In this document: piece by piece, positions 16,375 to 64,000 of the stretch
Position numbering within the stretch: position 1 is the stretch's first letter
Layout of the letters: every line of letters starts with the position of its first letter
Source of the DNA: a virus
Taxonomy: Duplodnaviria > Caudoviricetes
Direction: 5' to 3' (one strand)
Virus record (IMG/VR): IMGVR_UViG_2873737359_000001
Span: 113,487-177,486 of that record
Length of the DNA stretch: 64,000 nt
The notes under the pieces: generated by a model
The model's database searches: none
Told to the model about the DNA's origin: nothing
What the model saw: the letters and a program-made list of their open reading frames with translations, nothing else
Program-made: the position numbers and the translations under genes

Positions 16375-19300
16375 ATGAGTGATATGAAATTAGGAGAGAT
16401 TAGTCTTGATCCTGTTGCTGAAGCAATTGTTAAAGGGGTCAATATGAAAGCAAATTCTAAGGCTAATAAAGAATTTCAAAAAACAATAGATCAAATAAAA
16501 GAAGGCACAGACATGCCTGTTAGATTTAACCCCAATACTTCCGAATTTGATAAAGCTAAAAAAGAAGCTGAGAAACCAATAAAGACTCCGGTTAAATTAG
16601 AGACAGAAAATGTTGATCTCCCGCTTCTAGGGAAAACTCCTGTAAAATTATCAATTGATAAAGATAGTCGAACTGCTATTAAAAAAACTTTAAAGGATGC
16701 AGAAAAAGCATCAAAAAGTTTAATTGATTCTGCGGCAAGAACTGTAAAAAAAATAGGTTCCGCAAATTATTTAGAAGAACTTACAAAAAATGAACGACAA
16801 GCAATTTCTACTGCAGTGTCTAAAGTAAAACGTAACCATCCTGAAATTTCAGATGATAGGTTAAAAACATTTGAGCAAAATCTTATATTAGATAGACGAG
16901 CAAAAAAAACACATGAAACATTATCAGAAAATTTCAAGCTTCCAGATTCTTCTTCTAAATCATATGGACAAGAGATGTATGAAGCTGCTATTGCAGCTGC
17001 AAAGATTCAGGCTGCTGTTAAAATCAGAGAAGATCTTCATAACGATGAAAGCTATACACAATTTTTATCAAAAAATGATAGAAGCAAAAGTTATAATGGC
17101 AACACTCTTAAGATACCAGGAAAATTTATAGATCAAATACAAACTGGTTTGTACGAACATTTAGGGGTTACAGAATTAGGCAATGCTCTTACTTCTGGAA
17201 ATAGCTGGACTGGAATACAAGATCGTATGGTACGATCAATTGATTCTTTTAGTGCAGGTTTAACAGATGTTATAGAAGCTTCTATTCCAAAGACTTCTTC
17301 TGGAGATCGTATCACTAAGAAATTTCAGAAAAGAATAGATTCTGCTGTTAAAATGGCTGTTGGTATGTCTGTAGATGATGCCATTAATTATTTAACAGGG
17401 AAAAGGGGCATTAAAGAAAATAAAGAGGCGTTATCTTTATTAGGAAAGAAAAAAAATGGAGAATATGAATATTCTGTTGATGATATACTTGGCATATTAT
17501 CAGAGAAGGCGCCAACAGGTGGATCTGAAAACGGTGGCACTAATTATAAAGGATTTAGTCAAATTTTAGGAGCCTTACAGGTATATAACAGAAACGGAGC
17601 GTCTGGATTAAGTGCAAATCGTATTGAACGATTATCAGAACTTGTTGATGTAATTACCTCTACTTATACAGGCAATGATGGTTTCGTTGATTATGATGCA
17701 AAAACCGTAATTAAGTCAATCGATACAGCATTAGATAAAGTTCAGGACGAAGCCGAAAAGGCGTCAAAAGAATCAAAAGAACAACCTAAAGTAGCGGAAA
17801 AACCTAAATCTAAAAAATCTAATGAGAAGTCCTCTTCTACAACTTCTAAAAAAGAATCTGCAAAGACTGAGACTAAAACGGTTGAAGAAAAAGAACCGGG
17901 AAAAATTGAAAAATCTAAAGAAGAATTTGTTTCTTCTACTCCAAATAAATCCCATCGTAAAGTAGTAAAACCTCCTAAAATCTTAAAGGGCAATTCTCAA
18001 GCCAGAGATGTGAATGGTAATTTATTATCTTGGGATGGACAAGATTGGAAAATAAAATCAAATTCAGAATCCGATTCTTTATGGGAAAATATACCAGAGA
18101 ATCCGTCTCCTGAATTTTTAAAAAGATTTGAAAGAGCTAAAAAATTTACCAAAAATCATCCTGAATTATTTGGTCCAGATGCTCTCCCTATAGAATTTGA
18201 TGAGGAAGCTTTTTTGAAAGATTTTTTGAAAACATTGAATGATGCTCCCCCTATAAAATTTGATGAGGAAGATTTTGGGAAAACAATGAATGATGGAGTA
18301 AGTGTTAAAGTTCCAGATGCATCCAAAGATATAAAAGATGGAGCAAAGCAAATAAAACAGGCGTCAGATACAATAGAAAAAACTTCCAAAACCGATCAAA
18401 AAATATCTGATGACAAGAAAGAATCTTCTGATTCTATAAAACCAAAAACTCATTCATCTTCACATTCGAAAAAAGGAAATAATCAACAAGATGACGATCA
18501 AGATCAAATAAATACTGGAAATGATGTAAAAAAAACAAAAAAAGAATTTACATCACAATATAAAGAAGCCATTTCTGATATTAAAGATCTAGGGAAAGCA
18601 TATGTTAATCTTCAAAATGCTATTTTAAATCCAACAGGTAAAACTTATAAAAAATCAAATGGAAAAATAGGATCTTCATATGAAGATTTTATTGATCAGC
18701 AATTATCTGATATTGAAAATAAGGAAAATCGAATTAGGTCATTTAACAAAAATGTTCATAATCAAAATAAGACAAATCCTTCTCAAATTAAGGATCAGAA
18801 TATTTTTGATAGTTATGAGAAAGAATTGCAAGATAGTCAGTTACAGCAAAGTCAATTTGATGATAATCTAGTTAGTCTTATGAGATCTGCATACGAAGTT
18901 CGTAATAATGCTCAAAATGAAATACTTAAAACGATTGGCAGTCCTACACGAAAAGGAGAAATTAATTTAGAAAAATTTGCAAAGCAGCAAGAACGCTTTG
19001 CTAAAAGTGATTATGTGTACAATTTGCTTAGTGATAAAGTAAGCAAACGTAAAGGAAATGCATATCAAGAATCTGCCATATCTGATATTGCGGAATCTTC
19101 AAAAACAGATAGAGAGTCTATTTTACAAACGAATTTTGGTACGTTGTCTCAACAAATCAATGATTATGTATCATCTATTGAAAGAGCTGGACGCGCAAGC
19201 GAACAATTCAAATCAGATTTTGGAAAAATACAATCTGATTTGAATAAAAATGATCCTTCTCAATTTAAAGATACTGAATCAGGTATGAAAGAATATCTTG

Positions 19301-21153
19301 ACTTTATGACAGATATTCGCAGTCGTTTTAACAGCAATAAAGATTTTTATGAAAATGGCATCGGAAAATCTACTTTAGATTATGAAGCTATCAAAAATAA
19401 ATTAATTAAAGCAGAAAACTATAATACTAAAACAAATGAGTATAAATCAAAAGTTTTTGGTTTTCAAGAACAATGGGATGGTATTATAGATAGTTACAGT
19501 TCCGGAGATATAGAGAAAATGAAAGAAGCGGAACATGCCGCCACTTCTCTTATATCCACAATGAACGACTTTTATAAAGAATCATCTAAAAGTGATAAAT
19601 ATAAAAAGACAACGTCGAAAGGTACTTTAGTAGAAGACACTGTAGGTAAGGTTCAAGATATTAATGATGCAAAACAATCATTAAAACAATTTACCGATGA
19701 AATGAAATTAACTAATAAGGTGTCAGAAACCATTGATACATCAACAGGTAAGATCACACAAAAATTCAAAGATGATTATTCTGGAAATATAATTACTATC
19801 ACAAGTAATATTGACGAACTTAACAATGCTCTTAGAACAACTCAAAAAATTCAATCATCCGGTTCAGGTGGTTCAGGCGGCTCTCTTCTGGGAGGATTAA
19901 AAAATCTCGTATCCGGCAACTTTAAATCAATTGTTGGTGAAATAGGAAGTAGCGTAGCTAATGTTCAAATTCTTGGCCAAGCTTTCCAGCAAATGAAAGA
20001 TGGATTTAATACATTCCTTGATTTCAATAAAGGATTAACTAATATCAGTTATACCATGGATATGAGCAAAGAACAGCTCTCATCTCTCGGATCATCTGCT
20101 GTTGATATGGCCAAAGATCTTTCTATGTCCTTGGATAATACCATGGATATCTATCAGATCTATGCAAATATGAATACTACACCTAAGGAAATCCAGGAAA
20201 CAGCGAAGCCTACTGCTATTCTGAGTAACTTAAGTGGTGTAGATGCTTCTACCGCCGCCGATCAGGTACAGGGTATTCTTCAGCAGTTCCATATGCTTGA
20301 AGATGGCTCTACTACTGCTGCCGATGCTTCCATGCACGTAGTTGATGTATTGGATAAGATTTCCGGAAATATCGGTATGGATTATGCTAAGGGAATCAAG
20401 GTTATTTCTGATGCGGTACAGGCTTCCGGTCAGGTAGCATTTGATGCTGGAATGAGCTACGAGCAGTTAGCTGCTGTATCTGCTAAAGTAGCTGAAAGAA
20501 CTCGTGAAGATGGATCTTCTATTGGTAATGCAATGAAGACTATCATAACGAGAATCAGTAAAGTTGGATCTATGCCAGAATATGCTGCAGATGTAAGTAA
20601 TGAAGATCTTTCCCAGGCTTCAGAGTCTTTACATAAAGTTGGTGTAGAAGTCTATAACACAGATGGATCATTCCGTGATCTTGATACAATCCTTTCAGAA
20701 CTTAATTCTAAATGGGACGGATTGACAGACGCTCAAAAAGCAAATATTTCATACAATGTTGCAGCCACGAGGCAAACTTCAAAATTCAAGAATATACTTG
20801 AAGCTTGGACAGATTCTATGAATTTGGCAAACGAGGCCACTACAACCAGTGGTAATGCCGAAGCCAATCAGGAAAAATATATGGAATCTTTCTCCGGAAA
20901 GATCCAGGCAATAAAAACTCAGATGGATGAGTTTTGGTTAAACTTCTATAATTCAGACCAGGTATCTGGAGCTTTAGATTTTGTACAAGGTTTAACCGAA
21001 GGATTTACAGGGCTTGAAGAAGCCATTGGTCCAATTCCTACTCTAATCACGGCTGTATTCTCAGCATTGACCGTAAAAAATGCAGCAACAAAAGGATTAG
21101 ACTTTTTAGTAGGGAAAGATGGACAAGCAAGTGGACTTGCAAATGCCGTGGGT
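16375..21153 (+). CDS. Tail tape measure protein, exon 1 (contains TP901-family core)
   Basis: Core motifs such as GSSIGNAMKTIITRI and DGSFRDLDTILSELNSKW. Ends at the predicted 5' splice site GGU; the ORF-track stop TGA is the first intron codon. Confidence 0.88.
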
Positions 21154-21615
21154 TGACCCAAATTCGGGGTTACAGTTATTATTTCCGATTAATAATGAGC
21201 CTATCTACATAAAGATCGTGAGATCAATGTGTGGAGACGAGCGGCAATAAATAACTAGAGGATTAAAACGTTGAAACCTGCTATTCTATAATATAGTGAA
21301 TCGGGCGAAAGCCTGCAGGTAACGCACGTGCCAACCTGGTTAACGTCTAGTAATATGTGAAACATTAGTAACAATTGCGGAAGCAATGATGAGGGAAGCA
21401 TATGAATAATCAGGAAGTGTAGAGAGCGCACCCTTCCTCGGAGTATATACAAAATCCATATATGTATATGCTTTTAATGAATGTGCCTATAGTAATGATG
21501 GTGAAATCCATCCAGTACTCTTCTACTGTTATTTTAAATGAAGAAAAATATTTTTAGGAAGTGCCCCTATAAAAGAGGCACTGTTATTAAAGGTTTTATC
21601 CTTTAATCCTCGGGC

Positions 21616-23522: not shown

Positions 23523-26500
23523 ATCGGAAATCTAAAAAAAGCGATAAATTCAAAAGATACGGATACGGTGAAAAGTGTTCTTAGCGGAATGGATCTTGAT
23601 ACTGCTGGTAAATGGTTTGGACGTTTAAATCAGGAAAATGGAAAAACTATAATTTCTGAAGATATTTTTTCAGATATATTTTCACAATTATTTGGTGAAT
23701 TAGGCGAAGACACTATCAAAAAAGCCATTGCTAAAGGCACTGCTTCAAAAGGTTTCAAAGGTGCACTCTCTGCTGGTATTAGCGGTTTTGCTGGTGGATT
23801 AGCTGGTATTGGAGAAAGTATTGGTACTGTAGGTACAGGATTAGTATCATTTCTGGGTTCTATCTGGCCTTTATTAGCAGTTGGTGGAGGAATTTTTGCA
23901 GGTATTAAAGGATACCAGGCATTAAACGATAAATTCACTCTTACTAAAGGAATGGCGGACAAACATTATTCTCAGTCCACACAGGAATATGCAAATAACC
24001 AGTCCGAACTGGAATCCTTGCAGTCTCAGAGAGATACCAACCAAGAGCGTATTTACGAACTCCGGGCCAAAGAAAATCAGTCTCCTGACGAAAAAGCAGA
24101 ATTGAGTCAACTTCAGGAAGAAAATAATCTTCTTGATTCTCAGGTAGCTATAAAAGAAAAGTCTGTGGACGTATCTAAGCTAAAGGCAGCCAATGATGCC
24201 AAAACGAAACTTGAGAAAAAAGGATACCAGAAGAACTATAAAAAGGAAGCTTACGATAATCAAGATAAAACTTCAATCAATGATTTAGATGAAGCTTCTG
24301 AAATGATTGATTATTTAAATCAGCTTAAATCTGAGTACAAAGATCGTGTTCAGAAAATTGCGGATGAAGGTAGAGAACCAAGTTGGATTGAACAGAAAGG
24401 TTTGGATAGCACAAAGAAAAAGATTGACAGTTTGGAATCAGATGTTGCTGATAAGGTAACAGAAATCTCTGACACCGCTAAAAGCATGAAGAACGATGAT
24501 GGATCTCTTATTGATGAGAAATTCAAAGATACTGTTGCTTCTGCTGATGCTGTTGTACAGAAATATCTGAACTCTACAGACTCTACCACAGCCACTTCCG
24601 ATAAGATGAATAACATCTTTGCACTCTCTCAATTCTCAGATCTGAAGGATAAACTCATTGCCGCAGGTAAATCCGGTGGTACAGATGCTATCCAGAAAAT
24701 GATTGATGACACAGACGGTCTTAAAGATGCAATGAATAATGCCGGACTCACTGCGGATGATCTCAAGGATAGTATTATGTCTATAGCAGATCCTGACGCG
24801 AAGAATCTGGAAGGCATCAAGGAGAATCTTGAGGACATATTCGGTAAGGATGGTCTTGGACAGTCTGATTTCTTCAAAGGTAAAACGGATGAAGAGCTTG
24901 AGAACTTCTGGGATTATCTCCAGGACAACAACTATAATCCTAAGCAGATGAACTGGAATGAGGAAACCACTAAGAAAAACTTCGAGGCAGCACAGGAAGC
25001 TAAGAAGAAAACTCCAGAGGAATCTGCCACATTCGCTTCTAAATTCAAGAATGCAGCAGAAGATACTGCTACTGACATTGATACTGTAACAGATAACTTC
25101 CAATCTGACATGAAGAATATCCAGTCTGCTATGGAGTCCGTAACAAACGGTACATTCCAGAATTCTGATATGGCAGATCTGATCCAGCAGTTCCCGGAAT
25201 TAAGTAATGCCAGTGGTGATTTGAAGGATAATCTTCAGGATCTTGCCATGAATAAAGGGGCTGAGGCCATTGGTAAGATCAGGGATTCTGTAAAGGATGT
25301 TACGGACCCGAAGCAGTTAGCACAGGCGGATAAATATGTTCAGAGTATCATGGATACGATGGACATGAGCGATTTTGATGTAAATGAGGCAGACGTTAAA
25401 GACATTGCTACAAAAAACATCAAAAAAAATGCAGATAAGTGGGTTAATAGAGATAACGCATCAAAAAAAGTATCTGAGTTAATGGAAAAATATTCTGGCA
25501 ACGAAGATGCTATGAAGGCCATTGTTCAACTTTCTATGGATCCTTCTATGGCTGATGCCAGTATAGAAGAATGGGAATCTAAGATTGAAGATCAAGAAAT
25601 TCAGATAAAGATTAATGCTGATACCAAAGAATTAGATAACCTTTCTAAATCAATGACCCGTCTTCAGACAGACGCTTCTAATACTCAGACAGATATGAGT
25701 AATAAGTCTGCTTTCAACCAGAAAATAAATAAAGATGATTACGATGCTTTAATTAAAAATGGCGATGCTCAAATTAAGAACTATGACGAGCAAATCGCAC
25801 ATTATAAAAATTTACAGAAAATACTAAAAGAAAACAATATTGATGCAGAGAGCACTGAGCAATGGAAACAATGGCAGGATAATATTGATGCAGCACAGCA
25901 GTCTATAGAGAATATGAAGGCTTCTCAGGCTGAATGGGGCGATGCGATTAAGAATCTTCCTATTACAGATATAACAAATCTGTCAAGTGCTATCACTACT
26001 GCTATGAGCGAAATGCAGAGTGATACCGGATTAACCACAGATAGTGTAAAAAATCTGGCTACACAGTTTAGTGATCTCGGTGATATTAACATTGATAGCT
26101 TATATACTAGAACTGCAAAAGGTTTACAGCTTAATACCGATCGTCTCCAGGATTATATGGAGCAACAGAATGATTTTGTCAATTCTGATTTTGAGAACAA
26201 AGTTAAGGAGCAAAAGCAGATTGTTGAGGATGCTTTTAAAGCATATCAGAATGGGGATCAATCACTCGCAAATTATACTGCAGAGCAGAATGCTCTCGAT
26301 GAATTATTAAATCGTAGAAATCAATATTTCGCACGGTATCAAGAGGCTCAGGAGCAATTTACTGATTTCCAGAAGATGATCAATGCCGAAAACGCAGCTA
26401 ATGCTGGCGACGAATATACCACAGCTAAATCAAAACTCGATGAATTAAAAGAGTTATATGACAACAATCTTATTGGAACTGAAAAGTTTAAAAAAGGTGC

Positions 26501-29500
26501 TGCTTATTTCTCACAAAACGGATTTGAAGATCCAGAAAACTTCATTGAAAATTATAATCATCTCAAAAAGTATTACACCGATGATTCTTCCGGTCCACAG
26601 AAATTCTTAGAGGATTTAAATAAGAAAGGTCTCGCTACATATGAGACTCTTGCAAATGGTCAAAAGCAATGGGCTTATTCATTTAATGATGTCAAAGACG
26701 CTGCTGATCAGATGGGAATGAGATATGAATCATTCCAGTCTATATTAGGAAGACTTTCTGATTATGGTTTTGTGAATAATCTTGTTACTTCTACTCAGGA
26801 TGGAGAACAACAAATTGACGAGCTGACAGATGACCTTATTACAGAGAAAAATAAGCTGTCAAAACTGAAAGCAAATGGAGCCACAGATCAGGCTATTCAG
26901 GATCAGGAAAATGTTGTTGATCAACTTGAATCTAAAATTAGTGGTGTAAATCAGGCAGTAACAGATTATGCTAATGGTGAAACAGACAGAAAAGTTCAGG
27001 ATTTAAAAGAAGCAAAGCAGATTATCAAGGATTCAAAAGAAGCCTATGATGAGGCAATGAAATCTGGCGATACGGATCTCGCTCAGAAACTTCGTAAAAA
27101 TATCCAGGATACTGCTAAAGATAATAACATAGAGTTGACTCCGGAACTAAATATTGATGAGAAAGCTCTTGATAAGCAAATTGACAACTTACAAAGTGAA
27201 GCTCGCGAAAAGAGTGTACAGAAATATAAGGATATCCAGGATCAGCTCCATAATGGACAAACAGAATGGACAGATTCTGAAGATTTCAATGCAGCGGATG
27301 CTATTACCAAATTAGAACAGGCTCAATCAGAAAACGCAGAAGGATTTAATAATCTTGTATCTAATATGAAGAAATATAATCTTTCTGACTTGGAATCTAT
27401 GATTTTTGATAATGGTGCATATGAATCTGAAGATCAAGGTCTTCGCGATATGGAAGATCAGATTCAGGGCTTTGCTGAATCTATAGGACTTACTACCGAT
27501 CAAGCTAATATGCTCGTTCCTATTCTTGAGGCAATGGGTACTTTAGATATATCTCCTAAAGTTGATAATTCAGAGCTTGAAAAGACCGTGACAGATACTC
27601 AGACTGCAGAGCAGACTCTTGAAGAAACAACAGGAAAACAATATAATTTTGATTTTAACACAACAGACCTGGATACTATTCAGAAACAGGTTGATCAAGT
27701 TAAAAAGGATATCGAGGACACTTATCTTAAGCGAGATGAGAACGGCAATGTCATTAGAGACGAAAACGGTATCCCTACTTATGATTATAGTGCTCCTGGT
27801 GCAAAAGAAACAGCTCAGATTTATGATGCTTCTATTAAACAACAGCAACAGGCAGAATATCAAACCTCAGCTTTAGGCCAATCAACATCTTCTGATGAAG
27901 TAGTAAAAGCCGCCCAAGATTATATGACAGCTAAGAATGCAATGGATGTGGAAACACAGAAATATAATCTTGGTATGGAGAACAAGTTACGAGAAGCAAC
28001 GGATAATGCTACCAATGCTATGAATGCATATGCTGAAGTTGCAGATAAAAATGGCAATCCATTAGAAACTGACTTAAAAAATATTGATCCACAAAAACTT
28101 GAAGATCAATTGTTAGGAGTAACTGATAAGGATCTTAAAGTAAAAGTCGAAGCAGATACATCCGATGCAGAAAATGATATTCAAAGTCTTGAAAATCTCG
28201 AAGGAAGTTCTATTACTATCAATGCAGACGTTTCTACAAATGGTGGTGTTGAAGAATTACAAGATTCTCTTGCTTCTATTCCTCAAGGAGTATCTACTAC
28301 TGTGACATGTGATGTAGAAGGCGAGTCTGATGTAGATAATTTGGAGTCTTCTATGGAGTCTATCCCGGATAATACTCCTGTTACAATCGATTGTCACGTT
28401 GAAAATCAAGATCAACTTGATCAGATTAACCAAAAGGCAGACGAACTTAATGCCAATGGAAAACAAATAAAAATCAACGCTACTGTTGGAGAAGTAAAAA
28501 CTGATGGAGCAACTTCTAATACGCCTATAAATGTAAAAGGCAATGTCACAGAAGTTTCAGGAAACCCCTCTGGCACTGTAGATATAAAAGGCAACGTCAC
28601 TAAAATCTCAGGAAACCCTTCAGGTACAGTCGACGTCAAGGGTAATGTTACATCTGTTACAGGTAATCCATCAGGAACAGTAAATGTCAAGGGAAACATC
28701 ACAGGTATAACAAACGAAGATGCAGTAAAAGGTAAGGCTAATTATACAGTAGGACATTCACCAAAGAAAGTTCCTGATGCAAGCGGAAAAGCTAATTTTG
28801 GCCTTGGAAAACATCCCGAAAAAGCCCCTGATATTTGGGGTACAGCTCATTATACTGGGGATTTCCCAACATCAGCTCCCACCCTTTCTGGTACTGTAGT
28901 ATATCACGCACAAATTCTAGGAGCACCTTCTGGCGCAAAATCAGTTGCAACAGGTACAATGCTCTCTCCTGCTCATGCTTCAGGTACGGCTTATAATGTT
29001 TTAAATATGAAGCGACTCTCTCCTGCTCATGCCGGAGGAAATGTTGCTATCAAACATAATGAACAAGCTCTTGTAAATGAAGTAGGTACAGAATCTATTG
29101 TTCGTAATGGTGTATGGTCACTTCTTCCAGGCGGAGCACATCTTGAGAATTTAAAACAGGGAGACATTGTATTCTCTGCTTCTCAGACAAAAGATCTTCT
29201 TGAACATGGACGTACAGCTGGACATGCACGTGCTTATGCAGAAGGCACTGCTTCTCTCACACATGCTTATGCTCGTTCTTCTGCTGCTAATGGCGGTGGA
29301 GCTTTTGGCGGAGTTAGAACAAGAACTACCACTTCAAACCAGTCATCTAGTTCTAATAATTCAAATAATAATAATGCACTTCAAACAATCGCAGATAATA
29401 CAGATTCAATTGCGGGAAGTTCACAGCAAACAGCAGACAACACTTCGAATTGGGAAGATCCATGGAAGAATGCAGTAGACTGGTTCGAACGGTATAGCAC

Positions 29501-32500
29501 CAGAATAGATAATAAGTTGGATCTAAATAGTGCTATTTCTGATAATTATCAAGGAAATAAATCTAATAAGAAAAATCCATTTAGTATTGCTACAAAAAAT
29601 AGCACTTTAGATTATTCTATTGATACAATCAAAAAAGAAATTCCAAATTATCAAAAACAACGGGATTATTATGCTTGGCAAGCTGAGGCTTATGGAGATA
29701 AAATTGGTCTTTCTCAGGATCTACGTAAATTAGTTCAGGAAGGTAAAATCCAGGATATCGAAATTTACGATGAAGATACAAAATCTAAAATTGAAGCATA
29801 TCAGACATGGTACGATAAAGTTCATAGTGTTGAATCTTCTATTGAGGATCTAAAATCTAAAGAAGCGGATCTTTGGAACCAAAAATTCAGTAATATTACT
29901 GACCGTTATGATGCATTAAAAGGTATTTACTCAGGAAAGAATGATATTCTTAGTGCAACAAATGATTATCGAAAAGAAACAGGACAATCTGAATCTTATA
30001 AATCGGTATACGCAAATAATATTAGAGCGCAAAGAACAAATCAAATCAAGCAGAATGCTATTACTGCTGAGGAAATCAAAAAATATCAGGCAGAGTTAAG
30101 AAGTCTTGGAAAAGAATATGGCACTCAGTCTACTATTTATAAGGAAGCGCAGTCTACTCTTCTTGATCTAAATAAGGAATATCAAGAAGGGAAAACAGCT
30201 GTAAGAAATTTCACAAACCAGCTTAATGAGTTAAAATTAAAAGATCTTCAAAATGTAATTGATAGATATGATAACGCTTCTGATAAACAATCTTCTTATC
30301 GCGACTGGAAAGATGCTACACATTTCAAAGGAACATCCGGTGTTACACAGAATGATTTACTAGAGGGCATTAAAACTAATGACAAACTTATTGATGCCAT
30401 ATCTGCTAGAAGGGATGAGGTTCAGCGTCAAATGCTTGGACTTTCCACGAGTTCTGATGATTATCGAACATTGGCAGACGAGCTTGCACAATTAGACGAA
30501 AGGACTGCAAACATTGCTAAAAACAATGCAGAATTACGTCAGCAAGCAACTCAGTTACGTACAGACCAATATGATAAAGCAATAGACAAACTTGAGCGTA
30601 TCACAACTGACTGTGAAAATATTCAGAGTATGATGGATTCAGACACATTTTTATCTGATGACGGATCTCTTACTACAAATGGTCTTACTAATATTGCTTT
30701 AGAAAATCAGTCTATACAGACTAATCAGAAAAAAATTGCCACATTAAAGCAGGAATTAGCAGAAGTTCAACAAATGTATGACAATCATTGGATGACCGAG
30801 GAACAATTCTTATCTCAGAGCCAACAGATTATTTCTGATATTAATTCTGCGGCGAAAGATATTTCTTCAAGCCAACAAAATTTAATCGATACATATATTA
30901 ATCAGATTACAAAAGAGAACGAATATTTACAAGACAATATCTCTAAACGTAAAGAAGCTCTTGAGGCCAAAAAGGATTATTATGATTATGATAAGACTAT
31001 TAAGAATAAGACAAAAGATATCAATGTAATCAAAGCACAGATTGCTGCTCTTGAGGGAACAACAAACGCCGTTGCGAAGGCAAAATTAGAGCAACTTAAA
31101 GCAGACCTTGTAGATAAGCAAGAAGATCTCGAAGATACCAAGTATGACCATAAGATTGATATGGAATCTAAAGGCTATGATAATCTTGCAGATCAGGCAG
31201 ATAAGGCTTTGGATTCTACTACACAGGCAGTTAAAACCAATGCCGATATGCAAAAATCTGTTATCGATAATATGCTTAAGGAAGTACAAGGCAATTACAA
31301 GGATGTATATGATAATATTACAAACATTGTAAAAGATTCTGGTGCTCAAATATCTAAAGAATTTGATAGCATTCTTAAAAATATTGGAAACGGCAAAGGT
31401 AATTTTACTGTTACTGTTACAAGTAAAGCTAAATCTTCTGTAGGGAAAACAAAAATTTCTAATGCTCCTGGAGTTACTGGACGAGGAAAGACTTCCGGAG
31501 ATAAGAAAGTAAGACGAACTGCTAAAGACGGAAGCTCTGCAAATAACGCTGCCGATGAAAATGGTACAGATCGACAGGCAACACAAGCTGTTACTGCTAC
31601 TCCGAAATCTATATCTATAGGTGTTGGAAATAGCGCGACTGTGAAAATTGGATTTAAGCCGACAAATGCTACCTATAAAGATTTTACATACGAAGTTTCA
31701 AAAAAAGGAATTGTTTCAATTTCTAAAGGTAAATCTTCTATTACTGTAAAAGGCACGGCGGTTGGCAGTGTAAAAATTACTATCAAAGGTCATGGCGCAG
31801 GATGTAAATCTACGACTGTTTCTGTAAAAGTCTTAAAAGATGGAGCCAAACATACAACAATTGCAAAAAACGTAGCAAAATCTATGAGAACATCATTAGA
31901 CACCAATGATGTTACTAAGATTCTAAATGCTACAAGCGGTAAAAAAACGGTAAAAGAAGTTGAATCATACGTAAAACAATATGTTATTCAAAATAAAAAT
32001 AATAATGTAACAAAAACTGCATTATCTAAGTGGTTTAAAGCTCTTCCAGCTTTTAAAGGTGATGTTTCAAAAGTTACTGGTATCGTTACAAAGCATTTAG
32101 CCCAAAAAGGCAAAAAAGCTACCGTTGCTGATATTCAAAAGGCTGCATCTATTCTTGGATATAAGGATTATAAAAATGTGGCCAAATGGAGTACTACTCA
32201 GAAAAACGCACTCGTATCTAAATTAAAAGGATATGGATTTGCTAATGGTGGAATCATTCGTAATCTGATTCCTGCTAATATGAGTACATTATTTGGTGAT
32301 GCTATTATGAAAAATGGCGATACAGGTCTTATATCTGCTCGACAGGGAGAAACTGTATTAACAGAGAAGTTCACAAATATGCTCGAACCAACTGTGACTG
32401 CTATGAACGCATTTACAGATATGTACCAGAAAATGAGCGCTCCTAATGTAAGTAGTGTTCCAACTCAGCAACAAAATATATTCCAGCCAGAGTATAATAT

Positions 32501-32612
32501 TAATATTACTGGAATGGATCTAAGCAAGGCTACTGAACTGAAAAAGGTTATTCGAGGGGAACTCAATAATCATGATAAAGCACTTGCAAAAGAATTTAAA
32601 AAGTTCAGTTAA
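23511..32612 (+). CDS. Tail tape measure protein, exon 2
   Basis: Frame is open from 23511 (SLSKIGNLKK...) with no convincing RBS before the ORF-track start GTG 23568. Gly/Ala-rich hydrophobic segment, long coiled coils, ALVNEVGTE and GFANGG motifs typical of TMP C-terminal halves. Confidence 0.88.
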   Translation, partial: SLSKIGNLKKAINSKDTDTVKSVLSGMDLDTAGKWFGRLNQENGKTIISEDIFSDIFSQLFGELGEDTIKKAIAKGTASKGFKGALSAGISGFAGGLAGIGESIGTVGTGLVSFLGSIWPLLAVGGGIFAGIKGYQALNDKFTLTKGMADKHYSQSTQEYANNQSELESLQSQRDTNQERIYELRAKENQSPDEKAELSQLQEENNLLDSQVAIKEKSVDVSKLKAANDAKTKLEKKGYQKNYKKEAYDNQDKTSINDLDEASEMIDYLNQLKSEYKDRVQKIADEGREPSWIEQKGLDSTKKKIDSLESDVADKVTEISDTAKSMKNDDGSLIDEKFKDTVASADAVVQKYLNSTDSTTATSDKMNNIFALSQFSDLKDKLIAAGKSGGTDAIQKMIDDTDGLKDAMNNAGLTADDLKDSIMSIADPDAKNLEGIKENLEDIFGKDGLGQSDFFKGKTDEELENFWDYLQDNNYNPKQMNWNEETTKKNFEAAQEAKKKTPEESATFASKFKNAAEDTATDIDTVTDNFQSDMKNIQSAMESVTNGTFQNSDMADLIQQFPELSNASGDLKDNLQDLAMNKGAEAIGKIRDSVKDVTDPKQLAQADKYVQSIMDTMDMSDFDVNEADVKDIATKNIKKNADKWVNRDNASKKVSELMEKYSGNEDAMKAIVQLSMDPSMADASIEEWESKIEDQEIQIKINADTKELDNLSKSMTRLQTDASNTQTDMSNKSAFNQKINKDDYDALIKNGDAQIKNYDEQIAHYKNLQKILKENNIDAESTEQWKQWQDNIDAAQQSIENMKASQAEWGDAIKNLPITDITNLSSAITTAMSEMQSDTGLTTDSVKNLATQFSDLGDINIDSLYTRTAKGLQLNTDRLQDYMEQQNDFVNSDFENKVKEQKQIVEDAFKAYQNGDQSLANYTAEQNALDELLNRRNQYFARYQEAQEQFTDFQKMINAENAANAGDEYTTAKSKLDELKELYDNNLIGTEKFKKGAAYFSQNGFEDPENFIENYNHLKKYYTDDSSGPQKFLEDLNKKGLATYETLANGQKQWAYSFNDVKDAADQMGMRYESFQSILGRLSDYGFVNNLVTSTQDGEQQIDELTDDLITEKNKLSKLKANGATDQAIQDQENVVDQLESKISGVNQAVTDYANGETDRKVQDLKEAKQIIKDSKEAYDEAMKSGDTDLAQKLRKNIQDTAKDNNIELTPELNIDEKALDKQIDNLQSEAREKSVQKYKDIQDQLHNGQTEWTDSEDFNAADAITKLEQAQSENAEGFNNLVSNMKKYNLSDLESMIFDNGAYESEDQGLRDMEDQIQGFAESIGLTTDQANMLVPILEAMGTLDISPKVDNSELEKTVTDTQTAEQTLEETTGKQYNFDFNTTDLDTIQKQVDQVKKDIEDTYLKRDENGNVIRDENGIPTYDYSAPGAKETAQIYDASIKQQQQAEYQTSALGQSTSSDEVVKAAQDYMTAKNAMDVETQKYNLGMENKLREATDNATNAMNAYAEVADKNGNPLETDLKNIDPQKLEDQLLGVTDKDLKVKVEADTSDAENDIQSLENLEGSSITINADVSTNGGVEELQDSLASIPQGVSTTVTCDVEGESDVDNLESSMESIPDNTPVTIDCHVENQDQLDQINQKADELNANGKQIKINATVGEVKTDGATSNTPINVKGNVTEVSGNPSGTVDIKGNVTKISGNPSGTVDVKGNVTSVTGNPSGTVNVKGNITGITNEDAVKGKANYTVGHSPKKVPDASGKANFGLGKHPEKAPDIWGTAHYTGDFPTSAPTLSGTVVYHAQILGAPSGAKSVATGTMLSPAHASGTAYNVLNMKRLSPAHAGGNVAIKHNEQALVNEVGTESIVRNGVWSLLPGGAHLENLKQGDIVFSASQTKDLLEHGRTAGHARAYAEGTASLTHAYARSSAANGGGAFGGVRTRTTTSNQSSSSNNSNNNNALQTIADNTDSIAGSSQQTADNTSNWEDPWKNAVDWFERYSTRIDNKLDLNSAISDNYQGNKSNKKNPFSIATKNSTLDYSIDTIKKEIPNYQKQRDYYAWQAEAYGDKIGLSQDLRKLVQEGKIQDIEIYDEDTKSKIEAYQTWYDKVHSVESSIEDLKSKEADLWNQKFSNITDRYDALKGIYSGKNDILSATNDYRKETGQSESYKSVYANNIRAQRTNQIKQNAITAEEIKKYQAELRSLGKEYGTQSTIYKEAQSTLLDLNKEYQEGKTAVRNFTNQLNELKLKDLQNVIDRYDNASDKQSSYRDWKDATHFKGTSGVTQNDLLEGIKTNDKLIDAISARRDEVQRQMLGLSTSSDDYRTLADELAQLDERTANIAKNNAELRQQATQLRTDQYDKAIDKLERITTDCENIQSMMDSDTFLSDDGSLTTNGLTNIALENQSIQTNQKKIATLKQELAEVQQMYDNHWMTEEQFLSQSQQIISDINSAAKDISSSQQNLIDTYINQITKENEYLQDNISKRKEALEAKKDYYDYDKTIKNKTKDINVIKAQIAALEGTTNAVAKAKLEQLKADLVDKQEDLEDTKYDHKIDMESKGYDNLADQADKALDSTTQAVKTNADMQKSVIDNMLKEVQGNYKDVYDNITNIVKDSGAQISKEFDSILKNIGNGKGNFTVTVTSKAKSSVGKTKISNAPGVTGRGKTSGDKKVRRTAKDGSSANNAADENGTDRQATQAVTATPKSISIGVGNSATVKIGFKPTNATYKDFTYEVSKKGIVSISKGKSSITVKGTAVGSVKITIKGHGAGCKSTTVSVKVLKDGAKHTTIAKNVAKSMRTSLDTNDVTKILNATSGKKTVKEVESYVKQYVIQNKNNNVTKTALSKWFKALPAFKGDVSKVTGIVTKHLAQKGKKATVADIQKAASILGYKDYKNVAKWSTTQKNALVSKLKGYGFANGGIIRNLIPANMSTLFGDAIMKNGDTGLISARQGETVLTEKFTNMLEPTVTAMNAFTDMYQKMSAPNVSSVPTQQQNIFQPEYNINITGMDLSKATELKKVIRGELNNHDKALAKEFKKFS
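28533..28706 (+). repeat. 51-bp (17-aa) tandem repeat in the TMP, ~3.5 copies
   Basis: VKGNVTEVSGNPSGTVD-type units start at 28533, 28584, 28635 and 28686. Confidence 0.85.
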
Positions 32613-51558: not shown

Positions 51559-51566
51559 TTCATCAT

Positions 51567-51773
51567 TTATTCTTTTATTAGCTCAATCACATCTGTTAAT
51601 TCTAAATTATACGCATTACATATCGCAATAACAGCATTAAGATGAACTGGTTCGTTATTCTTCATTTTAAGTAAGGTGTTTCTACTAACACCACTCTTTT
51701 TTGATGCCGATAGCATAGATATGTTATTTTTAAAGAAATATAAAAATAATTTTTCATAAGAAACTCTCATCAA
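51567..51773 (-). CDS. XRE/Cro-family HTH regulator
   Basis: VSYEKL...SGVSRNTLLKMKNNEPV...ICNAYNLELTDVIE pattern (HTH_26-like). Confidence 0.75.
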   Translation of the reverse strand: MMRVSYEKLFLYFFKNNISMLSASKKSGVSRNTLLKMKNNEPVHLNAVIAICNAYNLELTDVIELIKE

Positions 51774-51876
51774 CTATCACCTCACTATTATCACTTCTAT
51801 TATCTCATTATATCATATTATTCAATTTGAATGTTGTTGATATTTTGTGCTAACTGCTCATATATTAAACATATTG

Positions 51877-51905
51877 TTGACATTCTGAGCATGTTCATTT
51901 ATAAT
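51877..51905 (+). promoter_or_regulatory. Consensus sigmaA promoter of the tubR-tubZ-rep operon
   Basis: TTGACA (51877-82), 17 bp, TATAAT (51900-05). Confidence 0.85.
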
Positions 51906-51910
51906 TCAAG

Positions 51911-52010
51911 TAGGAACTCTTACGAAACTATAAGAACTAATGTGAATTTTTAGGAAGAGGTGAGAAATTTTGAGAACTGATAGGAACTCCAAAGAACTCA
52001 GTAGAATTGA
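51911..52010 (+). repeat. Ten tandem 10-bp repeats (consensus TRNGAACTNN); candidate tubC centromere/operator
   Basis: GAA occupies positions 4-6 in ten consecutive 10-mers. Confidence 0.75.
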
Positions 52011-52242
52011 TTACTTAATTTTATCAACACTATTAAGTAATAATGCTACATCTGCCATGGTCGGATTGACTATCAAAGAATTAGAAATCACGGATGTAAC
52101 CAGAACCACTATCTGGAAGCATATTAAATTTATGATTAATAATGGTTTGATATGTCAATCCGGGACTAATGGTAGAGAAAAAATGTATTATATTACTCAA
52201 AATGGCATTAAAGTAATCGGAGGAGATCATGATGAAAAATAA
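51970..52242 (+). CDS. tubR: Winged-HTH DNA-binding protein, TubR-like adaptor
   Basis: TRTTIWKHIKFMINNGLI...MYYITQNG winged helix; directly upstream of and overlapping the tubulin gene. Confidence 0.6.
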   Translation: MRTDRNSKELSRIDYLILSTLLSNNATSAMVGLTIKELEITDVTRTTIWKHIKFMINNGLICQSGTNGREKMYYITQNGIKVIGGDHDEK

Positions 52243-53290
52243 TTTCTCACTGCTTGGGATTGGCGCTTGTGGAGGAAATCAAGTCGCAGCATTTAAAAAA
52301 TATGGAATGAATAGCTTCTATATTAATAGCGCATTGGAAGATTTACAAAGTCTAGGAATAGACAACATTCACTACTATCACTTAGACGGAGCAAATGGAT
52401 GTCATAAAAATAGAGATGTATCAAAAACCTATTTATCAGATAATTATGAGGATATATTAAGAAATATTGAAAGATATTCTACAGGCAAATATATCTTTCT
52501 ATTTGGTTCTATTGGCGGTGGTACATTCTCTGGAATGTGTGCATTGATTACTGAGCTAATTGAATCAGAATTGAATAAGATTGTAATACCTGTGGTTACA
52601 ATACCAAATTTTTCCGAATCTCTTCAGGCAAAAACAAATGCATATGAATCTTTAAAAGAATTACTTGATGTGGTAAAGCATACTGTTTTTATCGTTGATA
52701 ACAATAAAGAGACAAATTATGTTAAAAGTAATGAGATTTTAGCAAATCTTATTTATTCTCTTATTTCAGATGTATCTACTTCGGCAGATGGAATCTATGA
52801 TTATAGTGAAATCTGTTCGATGCTAGAATGCCATGGATACGGTATTATAAATACATTTACCAGAAAGCCTAATCAATCTAATATTACATCAGAACTCAAA
52901 AGAGCAGTTACGAATAACATATTCTGCGATATTGAATCTCGGAATCCTTTGTACTACTGTGGAATAAAAAATTCTACGATGAGAAAAACTGTCTCGATCG
53001 ATACTTCTGAATTGCAACTCCAATTTGGATTTTGGCGAGATCTGTTTTTAGGATATCAAACTAAGACTAATTTAATATTCTTGAGTGGATTGAAATATCC
53101 TGCTACTACTATCAATGCTCTTTATAAATCTATTCAGGAAGACAAACGAAGAATTGAGGAAGATTTAAAATCTTCACAATCTGAATCATTATTTAAAGAC
53201 GATTATTCTATTGCTCTTTCATCTTCTCTACAAGAGAAGAAAACATTATCTGCCAGGGAAAAATTAATACAAATGAGAAATTCTAAGTAG
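52229..53290 (+). CDS. tubZ: Tubulin/FtsZ-family GTPase (TubZ-like)
   Basis: GIGACGGN T1 loop, GGGTFSG tubulin signature variant, IVDN motif, DYSE T7-like loop. Confidence 0.85.
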   Translation: MMKNNFSLLGIGACGGNQVAAFKKYGMNSFYINSALEDLQSLGIDNIHYYHLDGANGCHKNRDVSKTYLSDNYEDILRNIERYSTGKYIFLFGSIGGGTFSGMCALITELIESELNKIVIPVVTIPNFSESLQAKTNAYESLKELLDVVKHTVFIVDNNKETNYVKSNEILANLIYSLISDVSTSADGIYDYSEICSMLECHGYGIINTFTRKPNQSNITSELKRAVTNNIFCDIESRNPLYYCGIKNSTMRKTVSIDTSELQLQFGFWRDLFLGYQTKTNLIFLSGLKYPATTINALYKSIQEDKRRIEEDLKSSQSESLFKDDYSIALSSSLQEKKTLSAREKLIQMRNSK

Positions 53291-53298
53291 GTGATATA

Positions 53299-54072
53299 AT
53301 GACCAATAAAAAATCTGGTGTTATTAGAAAGAAGCGAACATATTATGCACAGGTAAGTAATGTCGCATTAAGAGATGAGACATTATCCCTTAAAGCAAAA
53401 GGATTACTTGCTATAATTGAATCATATTTGACACTAGATGGTTTTATCTTATATAAAGACTTTCTTATGAGTAAATCTACCGATGGTGAATGTTCTTTTA
53501 GAGGAGCTTGGAAAGAATTAAAAGACCATGGTTACTTGATACAGTATAAACTTAAAGACAATGAAACTAAGCAATTTTATTATGAGTATGAGATATGCGA
53601 CAACCCACATGTTGAAAATCACCATATGGCTCAAAAGCCAGATGCAGAATTTCCACTTGTGGCTAATCTAGGTGATGGGAATTCCACAAGTGGAAAACCA
53701 CCCTCGTATAATAATACTTTATGTAATAATAATATATATATTAATACTATACATACCAACATCAATTACAACCCAATATTTGTTAATTCGATTGATAGAA
53801 AGTTGGTGGATAATATAGTAGATATTATGAATGAAGTATTATGCAACAATACTGAGTATATTGTAATTAATGGTAGTAATATACCATTAAATCTTGTGAA
53901 ATCTACGTTCTTAAAAGTTGGATCATCTCATATTCAATATGTTGTTAATGTAATAAATAATTACAATAACAAAATCAGTAATATGAAAAATTTCATTATT
54001 ACTACATTATACAATTCTGTATTAACACTCGATGCGTATTACATAAATCTAGTAACAAATACAGAATTATAA
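53299..54072 (+). CDS. Replication initiator-like protein (N-terminal wHTH, DUF6017-like C-terminus)
   Basis: LRDETLSLKAKGLL N-terminus; HIQYVV...ISNMKNFIITTLYNS C-terminus as seen in Firmicute Rep proteins. Confidence 0.7.
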   Translation: MTNKKSGVIRKKRTYYAQVSNVALRDETLSLKAKGLLAIIESYLTLDGFILYKDFLMSKSTDGECSFRGAWKELKDHGYLIQYKLKDNETKQFYYEYEICDNPHVENHHMAQKPDAEFPLVANLGDGNSTSGKPPSYNNTLCNNNIYINTIHTNINYNPIFVNSIDRKLVDNIVDIMNEVLCNNTEYIVINGSNIPLNLVKSTFLKVGSSHIQYVVNVINNYNNKISNMKNFIITTLYNSVLTLDAYYINLVTNTEL

Positions 54073-54083
54073 TTAGAAATATA

Positions 54084-54118
54084 AAAAATAGGCGCCTTTT
54101 AAGGTGTCTATTTTTTTT
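54084..54118. terminator. Bidirectional terminator closing the cassette
   Basis: AAAAATAGGCGCC-TTTTAA-GGTGTCTATTTTTTT. Confidence 0.7.
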
Positions 54119-54153
54119 ATACAAAAAAAAATACAGAAAGGACATGATGGATA

Positions 54154-62323: not shown

Positions 62324-62587
62324 TTATTTATTAAGCATAGCTTCAATATCATCTACGCTAAGGTTCTTTTTTTTCATCAGAGACACTACTCTATCAAGCG
62401 TTTCTTTATTTTTTTCTTCGTTCTCTCTGTTTTCTGCTTCAGAAAGCCATTTATTAAGATTGCGCTTTTTAGCTTTTAATTCTTTTAACTCTGTAGTTTT
62501 AGTAGCGATTTCCTCTTCTATCTTATAAATCTCTGCAAGAATATCTTCAACAGAAGAATCTTTTGTAATTTTTTTAGTTCTTGCCAT
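62324..62587 (-). CDS. Small coiled-coil protein (moron near the prophage end)
   Basis: AAGGAGG RBS before ATG 62587; highly charged helical sequence. Confidence 0.7.
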   Translation of the reverse strand: MARTKKITKDSSVEDILAEIYKIEEEIATKTTELKELKAKKRNLNKWLSEAENRENEEKNKETLDRVVSLMKKKNLSVDDIEAMLNK

Positions 62588-63004
62588 GATAATCAACCTC
62601 CTTCAGGTTATATATTATTTAATAAATATTATATATTAAAATCATTCTGATGTACAGTATATATTTATTTTAAAATTATGGTATTTATTGGTAAATAAAT
62701 ATTACTATCATAGCAAAAATAATGGTAACATTGCTGCCTTTAAATTATCTGACAATTTTATCGAGTACTACGACATAAAGCTTGTAACAATCACCAATAT
62801 TAATCCGCATCGAAATTGTATATACAATTATTTATTTAAAAATATAATCCTTATAAAAAGATCAATACAAGTAAATTGAATAAAAATCATATAAGATTAA
62901 TAAAAAATAAAATTGGGGAATAAAATTTTTTAAATTCAATAAGGGTGAAATAAGGTGGTAAGATTTTTAGAAATCCTTGTTTTATAGGATTTATAAGAGT
63001 TTTA

Positions 63005-63049
63005 ACATGGTACCGGAAACCACTGCTCTATCCACTGAGCTACAGGTGC
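63005..63049 (-). tRNA. 5' half of tRNA-Arg(CCG), truncated after the anticodon arm; prophage attachment junction
   Basis: Minus strand GCACCTGTAGCTCAGTGGATAGAGCAGTGGTTTCCGGTACCATGT. Acceptor 5' strand, D arm and anticodon CCG are present; no T arm follows. Confidence 0.85.
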
Positions 63050-63113
63050 ATAATGAAAAACATAACTTCTAAATCAGGTATGAAATTATCAAAGTTGGCT
63101 TACACTGTCTTTG

Positions 63114-63142
63114 ATTGTAGCACATAAACATAAAATTGTAAA
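63114..63142 (-). promoter_or_regulatory. Putative host promoter of the tRNA gene
   Basis: Minus strand TTTACA-N17-TACAAT. Confidence 0.5.
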
Positions 63143-63226
63143 GATTTTTTTAAACAGTGTACATTCATCACACATTTCATATTATTTCCGGTACAGATTC
63201 TGAAGTAAACTGTACCAGAAACATAT

Positions 63227-64000
63227 TCATTTATATTTATCACACGAAAATATATAATACGGACTTACCGTATCCAGAACCTGGTAGCCGCCGGCCACCA
63301 TATCCAGAACAAAATTTTCATCCGGAGGTACCATCACCACATATGTACAGTGAACGGCATCTGCCAGGCTGGAAGTCTTTTTTCCATCGGGGACTTCCGA
63401 AGTGATCTGTTTATACAGAACTCTTGCCTTCTTACCTACAGCACCATCCCCTCTGCGTCCGTAGGCCATTTTCAGGGAAGGATCATACACCCGGATATAG
63501 GATGCCGTATATTCATCTGCGGCGATCCGCACTTCCTTTCCTTCTCTGTCCTCATTGATCCGGTTACAGATCATTGCGATCTGATCCGGTACCTGCTGGC
63601 GGTTATAAACTCTTTCGAAATTTCCTGCTTTTATCATTCCGGTCCCAGAAGCAGCAATAACTCCTGTCAAAACCAGCACCAGGATCACCTGCACGATCCG
63701 GTTGCGACTTCTTCGGACAAGCTCTGTAAAACCGCCTGCGATCAGCGGAACCGTAGGTAAAAGCCACAAAACACGCCAGTACACGATTTTTCCTATACAT
63801 TTCATAATCACCCGTCCGGAAAACGGACAGAAAAACAATACCAGAAGAAAAACGGAATATAAAACCAGACTGAGACTGTTTTTTTTCTTTTTCCCAAAAA
63901 TCAGTGCACATGCTCCGCCAAGAGCCAGAAGATACGGTATCCAGCCATTTCCCCAGTACATCCTCCACACATTAACTGTCCATGCAATTATTTCTTTCAT
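63227..64000 (-). CDS. Host membrane protein of unknown function
   Basis: Several TM segments, higher GC and different codon usage, located outside the att junction. Confidence 0.75.
   Translation of the reverse strand: MKEIIAWTVNVWRMYWGNGWIPYLLALGGACALIFGKKKKNSLSLVLYSVFLLVLFFCPFSGRVIMKCIGKIVYWRVLWLLPTVPLIAGGFTELVRRSRNRIVQVILVLVLTGVIAASGTGMIKAGNFERVYNRQQVPDQIAMICNRINEDREGKEVRIAADEYTASYIRVYDPSLKMAYGRRGDGAVGKKARVLYKQITSEVPDGKKTSSLADAVHCTYVVMVPPDENFVLDMVAGGYQVLDTVSPYYIFSCDKYK

Follow-up and report, generated by a model that had tools for sequence, protein, structure and literature searches.

Described systems and the locus considered here

To our knowledge, the only carriers on which type III (tubulin-based) partition has been studied so far are Bacillus plasmids and one phage that does not integrate, c-st. 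Another setting is provided by a 64,000-nucleotide (nt) stretch of DNA, positions 113,487 to 177,486 of IMG/VR virus record IMGVR_UViG_2873737359_000001, analysed at its full length ('the window', to whose positions coordinates refer unless one of the host genome contigs, C1 or C4, or one of the related loci, L003-L035, is named). At 51567-54120, among the fibre genes of a prophage of a gut Firmicute, it holds a cassette in which genes for a DNA-binding adaptor (tubR), a tubulin/FtsZ-family GTPase (tubZ) and an initiator-like protein (rep) share one operon, with a divergent regulator gene beside them. From comparisons of sequence and predicted fold, we are confident, though short of certain, in identifying the module as a tubC-TubR-TubZ partition system together with a replication initiator and its origin. 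A preliminary description had proposed a plasmid-type TubR-TubZ pair coupled to a Rep-like gene, and both the pairing and the coupling stand up; to these are now added ten phased iterons (51910-52009) and palindromic boxes inside the third gene.

In type III systems the centromere, tubC, comprises direct repeats upstream of tubR, and TubR has a double part there, repressing the promoter and building the cargo complex (PMC6009700). The closest described counterpart of the present module is TubZRC(Y) of c-st (TubZ, CST189, PDB 3V3T/4XCQ; TubR, CST190, 6TEY; TubY, CST188). The gene order, tubR-tubZ-third gene, is the same, c-st TubZ is the closest match by both sequence (27% identity) and fold, c-st TubR is the best PDB match for the adaptor, both systems have iterons, with GAA in their core, ahead of tubR where they overlap the promoter region, and both are carried by a large phage of a Firmicute of low GC content. 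What is new here is a c-st-type system with a different centromere layout (one ten-unit block that runs into tubR, whereas the c-st centromere is split over ~350 base pairs (bp) and has two iteron types; PMC6009700), an initiator-like gene in the place of tubY, a variant GTP-binding signature (GGGTFSG as against AGGTGSG) and an integrating host phage (c-st is a plasmid prophage that does not integrate, whereas the phage here has a tyrosine integrase and sits in a tRNA-Arg gene). The literature searched contained no description of TubZRC in an integrated prophage.

For the third gene the parallel is with RepA_N replicons (pSK41 Rep; pTZ2162 RepA, PDB 4PTA; pPR9 Rep), in which a winged-helix N-domain is followed by a dispensable linker, with semi-palindromic Rep boxes that serve as origin, and by a host-specific C-domain. 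In pSK41 the Rep boxes are central within rep, the linker can be dispensed with and the C-domain binds primase (PMC5703833), and in a pPR9 chimera the N-domain could be replaced by a phage-type helix-turn-helix (HTH) domain with the replicon still functional (PMC5703833; PMC7145576). The likeness extends to the C-domain of the protein encoded in the window, DUF6017, which is also the C-domain of a true RepA_N protein in the same bacterial genome. Unlike these replicons, the gene is in a phage and in one operon with tubRZ, its N-domain is without a PF06970 match, and the antisense-RNA control region is not seen here.

Pairing of an initiator with partition genes is familiar from P1, where repA with its incA iterons lies beside parA-parB-parS, i.e. 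an iteron-binding initiator and a partition operon form a low-copy maintenance kit separate from the lytic replication genes. However, P1 uses a ParA Walker ATPase and does not integrate at a tRNA site, and there is no sequence relationship. A full system of filament, adaptor and DNA site in a chromosomally integrated prophage has its precedent in AlpAC/alpS of CGP3 in Corynebacterium glutamicum, although there the filaments are of actin fold (ParM-like), no initiator is coupled to them and the host belongs to another phylum. PhuZ of the nucleus-forming jumbo phages is likewise a phage-encoded tubulin-family GTPase, and its family, phrog_4733, is matched weakly (E 4e-6) by the TubZ of the window, as compared with E 1e-25 for phrog_17961. 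Assignment as a PhuZ-type tubulin was rejected given that difference and the presence of TubR and iterons: the protein is much closer to c-st TubZ, PhuZ systems have neither a TubR adaptor nor a centromere, and the phage here is temperate and integrates.

A full type III system is thus met in a demonstrably integrating phage, in one operon with a conventional initiator-like gene and a mapped candidate origin, and the compact 2.5-kb unit lends itself to asking why integrating phages keep segregation machinery; it also bears on a possible alternation of some large gut phages between lysogeny in the chromosome and lysogeny in plasmid-like form. In the Bacillus 'TubZ/RepX replicons', TubZ and TubR were first scored as replication genes. 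That old puzzle is touched on by a lineage in which the partition pair and a bona fide-looking initiator are coupled both physically and transcriptionally. Nature has, moreover, supplied test cases for TubR filament assembly in the ten-unit, helically phased centromere, and for TubZ nucleotide binding in the serine or phenylalanine variants of the signature.

The partition pair and its probable centromere

The tubZ gene (52229-53290, + strand; 352-353 amino acids, aa) matches PF00091 at E 1e-15, with 58.9 bits against a cut-off of 33, and the best solved relative of its product is c-st TubZ (PDB 3V3T; E 1.8e-23, 27% identity over the full length). Structure prediction, which had been put forward as a check on the tubulin fold, bears that fold out: the AlphaFold model (pTM 0.80) has 3V3T as its top Foldseek match (E 2e-20; TM 0.72/0.84), with CetZ, Bacillus TubZ and FtsZ trailing by six orders of magnitude. 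The T7-loop residues G188, D191 and E194 are invariant across 14 sequences, that of c-st included. At the C-terminus a helix (342-351, pLDDT ~89) is modelled after a low-confidence, disordered linker, and is conserved, with E344 and L346 nearly invariant; this predicted tail has the form of the adaptor-binding tails of TubZ systems.

Immediately upstream, tubR (51970-52242, +; TTG start; ribosome-binding site (RBS) AAGAGGTGA) encodes a 90-aa winged-helix protein, to judge by its similarity to c-st TubR a centromere-binding adaptor. Pairwise identity to c-st TubR, CST190, is 29%, and a profile of the TubR family matches PDB 6TEY, the same protein, at E 3.9e-13 over 74 of 87 positions, the next match being at 0.0027. 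The tubR and tubZ reading frames overlap by 14 nt. By sequence and profile, and for TubZ also by fold, the pair is of the c-st (type III) kind.

The pair is accompanied by an array of ten contiguous 10-bp iterons (51910-52009, +; consensus nTAGGAACTn), recognized from its 10-bp periodicity and with the GAA core present in all ten. It starts directly after the -10 box of the operon promoter and covers the 5′ untranslated region, the RBS and the first 13 codons of tubR. When 100-bp segments were ranked by a column-information score, this one was the top 10-bp-periodic segment in the window, scoring 98.3 against a mean of 33.5 (sd 9.3), and in 10 of 10 related loci, each taken over its whole ~21 kb, the equivalent stretch at the start of tubR likewise came first; between clades, the iteron sequence drifts while the position of the array stays. 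The iterons are too degenerate for detection by Tandem Repeats Finder, which reported no array at 51700-52200, and there is no second iteron cluster elsewhere in the 172-kb prophage. Given its form and place, the array is taken to be a tubC-like centromere and operator, the predicted target of TubR.

The third gene and a candidate origin within it

The third gene, rep (53299-54072, +; 257 aa), is read as that of a modular theta-type initiator candidate with an intragenic origin. Its product matches PF19481 (DUF6017) at E 7e-20, and its first ~110 residues match PHROG families of replication initiation proteins and DnaD-like loaders (phrog_4707, E 4e-15). Three parts can be told apart, a winged-helix N-domain (1-105), a linker and the DUF6017 C-domain (143-253), and in an alignment of 20 homologues the two domains are conserved while the linker is of low complexity and variable length. 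The N-domain is modelled as an extended winged helix for which the best VIA-align matches are RctB domain 1 and primosome DnaB (Z 9.1), followed by the DnaD N-terminal domain (Z 6.7) and pTZ2162 RepA (4PTA; Z 6.5). Foldseek with the model of the protein gave no match at E ≤ 0.001, and its profile found nothing below E 0.4 among PDB sequences.

A 383-aa protein with true RepA_N and DUF6017 domains is encoded on contig C4 of this bacterium, with parA and parB directly before its gene. The phage C-domain is 33% identical to the C-domain of this protein (E 4e-13; hhalign probability 98.7%), and when the whole proteins were compared with hhalign, the C-domain alone aligned. That an initiator of another replicon and the phage protein have this domain in common suggests that DUF6017 may be a host-specific, replisome-recruiting domain in this bacterial group; no description of it was found in the literature searched. 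The C4 locus (L022; C4:134001-152144, genes at 9098-11856 of it), where parA-parB-RepA_N+DUF6017 is followed by a DUF6050 gene and one for a type IV secretion system coupling protein, is, to judge from its gene content, a conjugative element or plasmid in the same host.

For the N-domain the relatives are elsewhere, in proteins annotated 'RNA replicase' on circular clostridial plasmids (52-59% identity). One of these is the only Rep-like gene product of a 13.7-kb Sarcina plasmid and another is encoded near a ParM gene; the annotation is probably mistaken, and the proteins of L034 and L035 are, more plausibly, Rep proteins. The first of these loci is plasmid p4 of Sarcina sp. JB2 (L034; 13,674 bp), which otherwise carries phage head and packaging genes only and looks like a satellite or a mini phage-plasmid. 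The second (L035) is a 54-kb cpb2 plasmid of Clostridium perfringens that also bears an N-domain homologue.

Within rep, the DNA encoding the linker carries three palindromic boxes, CCACATGTTG at 53605, CCACTTGTGG at 53653 and CCACAAGTGG at 53684, followed by an AT-rich run (53700-53765, ~22% GC), the whole making up a candidate origin at 53605-53765 found by palindromes and GC profile. Within the 172-kb prophage, exact matches to CCACWWGTGG number two, both in the rep linker, against eight over the 3.7-Mb genome. The window and 8 relatives have from two to four CCACNNGTGG boxes, with an AT-rich run, in their linker DNA. Most boxes translate as P-x-V-E/D, and the last is conserved in another frame, as S-T-S-G; conservation in two reading frames points to selection on the DNA rather than on the peptide. 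The combination of clustered boxes and AT-rich run in this linker DNA makes a pSK41-like origin inside the gene the probable reading.

Integrated and circular forms among these phages

The window corresponds to C1:400997-464996 of a 3.7-Mb genome of ~44% GC, and its positions 1-63054 are the right 63 kb of a ~33%-GC island at C1:291917-464050. The island is bounded by an exact 50-bp direct repeat, of which the left copy (C1:291917-291966) lies inside a tRNA-Arg(CCG) gene and the right copy, the core of the attachment (att) site attR, at 63005-63054 of the window, marks the right end of the prophage; the distance between the repeat starts, and so the prophage length, is 172,084 bp. A 400-aa tyrosine integrase gene (C1:292312-293514) adjoins attL. 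In four other isolate-type assemblies, contigs match the window exactly at 63005-64000 and then continue with the 30 bases that precede attL; these four have an empty attB. Integration of the prophage at a tRNA gene, as had been proposed, is thereby borne out, the gene being 172 kb to the left; ARAGORN found no tRNA within the window. Among public DNA runs that have words in common with the window (~27-29% of its words), the sharing is with the host flank, and the phage is not in them. Whereas extrachromosomal low-copy carriage is part of what defines type III systems, the element here lies integrated between the 50-bp att repeats.

Circular DNA of close relatives is also on record. A 244-kb scaffold with a ~91% identical phage (L032) runs through attR into the same host flank, and a metagenome contig (L033; phage 91% identical) has the core flanked by the right and the left end of the phage, i.e. 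an attP junction. Integrated and circular forms of near-identical phages thus both exist in nature. Of the more distant kin, the record of L007 is a 172,685-bp contig with terminal repeats that is rated complete. Four IMG/VR relatives lack the 50-bp att core and probably use other integration sites.

Possible roles of the module

Only a free replicon can make use of a centromere and an origin; the module must accordingly act on an excised or newly injected circle, and most likely it replicates and segregates the excised circular phage genome. A single autoregulated operon, from consensus promoter to terminator, would encode TubR, TubZ and the initiator. TubR would coat the ten phased iterons between the -10 box and codon 13 of tubR, thereby repressing the operon and forming the cargo complex, and TubZ would polymerise, engage TubR-tubC via its conserved C-terminal helix and separate sister genomes. 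The initiator, in a layout like that of pSK41-type RepA_N replicons, would bind the boxes in its own linker-coding DNA, open the AT-rich run and recruit the replisome via DUF6017. In the integrated state, the divergent XRE protein would probably silence the unit.

As to when such a circle would be served, a low-copy, plasmid-like extrachromosomal phase beside integration, which would make this a facultative phage-plasmid, is favoured on account of the likeness in layout to the P1 repA-par and c-st kits, the transcriptional insulation of the cassette and its linkage to an integrase and att sites; we put its likelihood at a little under even. The broader proposal, that the ~170-kb gut phage family consists of facultative phage-plasmids, lysogenic either by integration or as a segregating low-copy episome, with the change of Gly to Ser or Phe marking a TubZ subfamily of altered nucleotide handling, is speculative and, taken whole, rather unlikely.

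Several observations weigh against the favoured reading. Integrated is the only state seen in a cultured-type assembly, and virions or lytic replication could just as well have supplied the attP DNA in a metagenome. A plasmid-like replicon is not obviously needed by a phage that encodes a DNA polymerase III (Pol III) alpha subunit, a DnaB-like helicase and a primase of its own. The cumulative GC-skew minimum is ~72 kb from the candidate origin, at the early/late divergence (C1:~380-384 kb), and the main phage origin may be elsewhere, though this placement is ambiguous since the skew here follows gene strand. As to the individual proteins, the fold Z scores of the rep N-domain are middling among many winged helices, neither Pfam RepA_N (PF06970) nor HTH_36 matches this domain in the protein or its 19 homologues, and the fifth Gly of the GTP-binding signature of TubZ is Phe here and Ser in most relatives.

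The main alternative is that the module works only after induction or infection, with the initiator firing the vegetative origin and TubRZC transporting or positioning the replicating DNA, and lysogeny never being plasmid-like. This has to be taken seriously, even if we hold it to be appreciably less than an even chance. The integrase and att system looks to be in working order, and two independent samples have the phage in integrated form. No second, origin-binding initiator turned up among those early genes that were scanned, a non-exhaustive set in which ten genes flanking the early/late divergence point were compared with PHROG, and rep may be the only initiator that the phage has. In CGP3, too, AlpAC acts on the induced, excised phage DNA, and this ParMRC-like system of an integrated prophage is needed for efficient viral DNA replication (PMC4446434). 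What speaks for a plasmid-like phase instead is that plasmid prophages have this layout for their maintenance, an initiator gene and partition genes sharing a single autoregulated unit from promoter to terminator, that segregation pays off in dividing cells only, and that the cassette is insulated from the surrounding late operons; nor does the GC-skew minimum fall where a vegetative origin fired by this initiator would have to be.

A different challenge concerns the third gene itself, which might encode a TubY-like DNA-binding modulator of TubZ, with the linker boxes being just the DNA face of a peptide repeat. In c-st, the HTH-bearing tubY likewise follows tubZ, and most of the boxes do read as P-x-V-E/D repeats in a disordered linker. 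However, no similarity was detected to c-st TubY, CST188 (best BLASTP E 18), or to c-st CST186, the last box is conserved in the wrong frame for a peptide repeat, and the C-domain shared with a RepA_N initiator, the PHROG replication-initiator matches and the occurrence of an N-domain homologue as the sole Rep-like gene of a small circular plasmid all fit an initiator; a TubY-like role is accordingly improbable.

Age of the cassette and the variant signature

The preliminary description had the cassette inserted in a fibre operon and allowed that it could be a captured mini-replicon, and recent capture of a plasmid mini-replicon, or the landing of a separate mobile element between fibre genes, would suit a self-contained unit that interrupts such genes with a promoter and terminator of its own and whose GC content, 29-31%, is slightly below that of its surroundings. 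The relatives tell otherwise, and recent capture is very unlikely. L003, L007, L032 and L033 are syntenic with the window, with giant fibre, three small genes, XRE, tubR, tubZ, rep, a gene for 85 aa, fibres, lysin and holin in the same order, and the four-gene unit is at the same place in related phages of 168-173 kb. In all, eight related phage loci show the module in synteny and subject to purifying selection. The identity of the module proteins to those of L003 and L007, 68-81%, is like that of the neighbouring proteins, 66-87%, and neither flanking repeats nor a recombinase belong to the cassette itself. Ratios of nonsynonymous to synonymous divergence (dN/dS), rough since dS is near saturation, are 0.05-0.10 for tubZ, 0.08-0.25 for tubR and 0.14-0.17 for rep. 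Because of its constant place, a divergence like that of its fibre neighbours and dN/dS of 0.05-0.25, the module is seen, on this comparison, as an old, vertically inherited part of the phage lineage, and the descriptions 'inserted' and 'captured' are not supported.

A second clade (L008-L013; TubZ 68-70% identical) keeps the four-gene unit amid different neighbours, which also argues against recent capture. In two of its members, at L008:12323-13555 and L011:12208-13398, a gene for a 396-410-aa tyrosine integrase lies 350-470 bp after rep on the opposite strand, so that module and integration region adjoin. At L014:9724-13026, in an IMG/VR record of 168,971 bp with terminal repeats, a distant tubR-tubZ pair (TubZ 27% identical) is immediately followed on the same strand by a gene for a 643-aa large serine recombinase, and the upstream iterons have a TGCA core. 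Taking the L008-L013 clade and L014 together, the adjacency of tubulin partition genes to integrases is a recurrent one among these phages.

With the single TubZ as query, no related loci were found in genome or viral contigs; an alignment-based search gave none in genome contigs and 9 loci in viral contigs. In 300 species genomes of the host's family only distant TubZ-like genes were present (26-31% identity, 7 genomes), none of this clade. Altogether 80 clusters of TubZ homologues were available, mostly metagenomic and many on contigs of 110-220 kb.

These clusters put the signature in context. It does read GGGTFSG, not GGGTGSG, as had been remarked. The change of the fifth signature Gly to Phe is found in 11 of the 80 clusters, all in the closest sub-clade, and the change to Ser (GGGTSSG) in 61, while Gly is kept in a clade at 49% identity, in c-st and in other distant TubZ genes. 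Strong purifying selection on tubZ argues that GGGTFSG and GGGTSSG are a clade-specific lineage trait, as read from the alignments, and not decay. An inert relic of a phage-plasmid ancestor turned integrative, with a GTPase killed by the Gly-to-Phe change, would account for signatures that depart from the near-universal GGGTGSG, but is very unlikely given the low tubZ dN/dS across the clade (Phe-bearing pairs included), the retention of T7 residues, C-terminal helix, iterons, promoter and translational coupling, and the presence of Ser or Phe at this position in 72 homologue clusters.

Regulatory sites and neighbouring genes

The components listed in the preliminary description, a divergent XRE regulator, consensus promoter, winged-HTH gene, tubulin-family GTPase, Rep-like gene and terminator in fibre-gene surroundings, are all present. 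The regulator gene (51567-51773, - strand; XRE/Cro-type HTH, 67-68 aa; PF13443 HTH_26, E 1e-7) keeps its position in 8 related loci, at 56-73% identity, and is separated from the operon by an intergenic gap of 196 bp. Within this gap, the TTGACA-17-TATAAT sigma-70 promoter of tubR-tubZ-rep (51877-51905, +) matches the consensus at 12 of 12 positions and is the only perfect match in the window, where 0.12 would be expected; in relatives, TTGAC(T/A)-17-TATAAT is kept there. A repeat search found two 20-bp direct repeats (51831-51850 and 51871-51890, +; 80% identity, 40-bp spacing) that overlie the -35 boxes of two tandem promoter-like sites, 51837-51866 and 51877-51905, and so are candidate operators. 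Between the XRE start and the promoters, at 51774-51830, is a second, weaker run of ~10-bp repeats (CTATTATCAC-like), which may serve as XRE operator or as another site for TubR.

The three + strand genes are close-packed, each with its own Shine-Dalgarno sequence, and are followed by an intrinsic terminator (54079-54120, +) with a 15-bp stem, a minimum free energy of -18.3 kcal/mol (z -5.6), a stability reached by none of 200 shuffles, and, before and after the stem, an A-run and a T-run that make it possibly bidirectional. The genes upstream of the cassette encode a DUF6273 fibre protein of 2455 aa and fibre-like proteins with coiled coils; those after it encode collagen-like/PTR-repeat fibres and then an endolysin.

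Elsewhere, the prophage encodes a RecD2 helicase, an exonuclease, a Sak4-like annealing protein, NrdD and thymidylate synthase, and has 11 tRNAs (C1:392.7-399.4 kb). Its further products include a NAMPT-like enzyme, a P-type ATPase and a stand-alone reverse transcriptase, and the late genes of the prophage fall within the window. A conserved 87-90-aa open reading frame (ORF) at 62324-62596 (-), between holin and attR, is the last phage gene before the junction. Further left in the window, two very long tape-measure-like ORFs, 16375-21156 (1593 aa) and 23568-32612 (3014 aa), are separated by a gap of ~2.4 kb that holds a minus-strand ORF of 189 aa.

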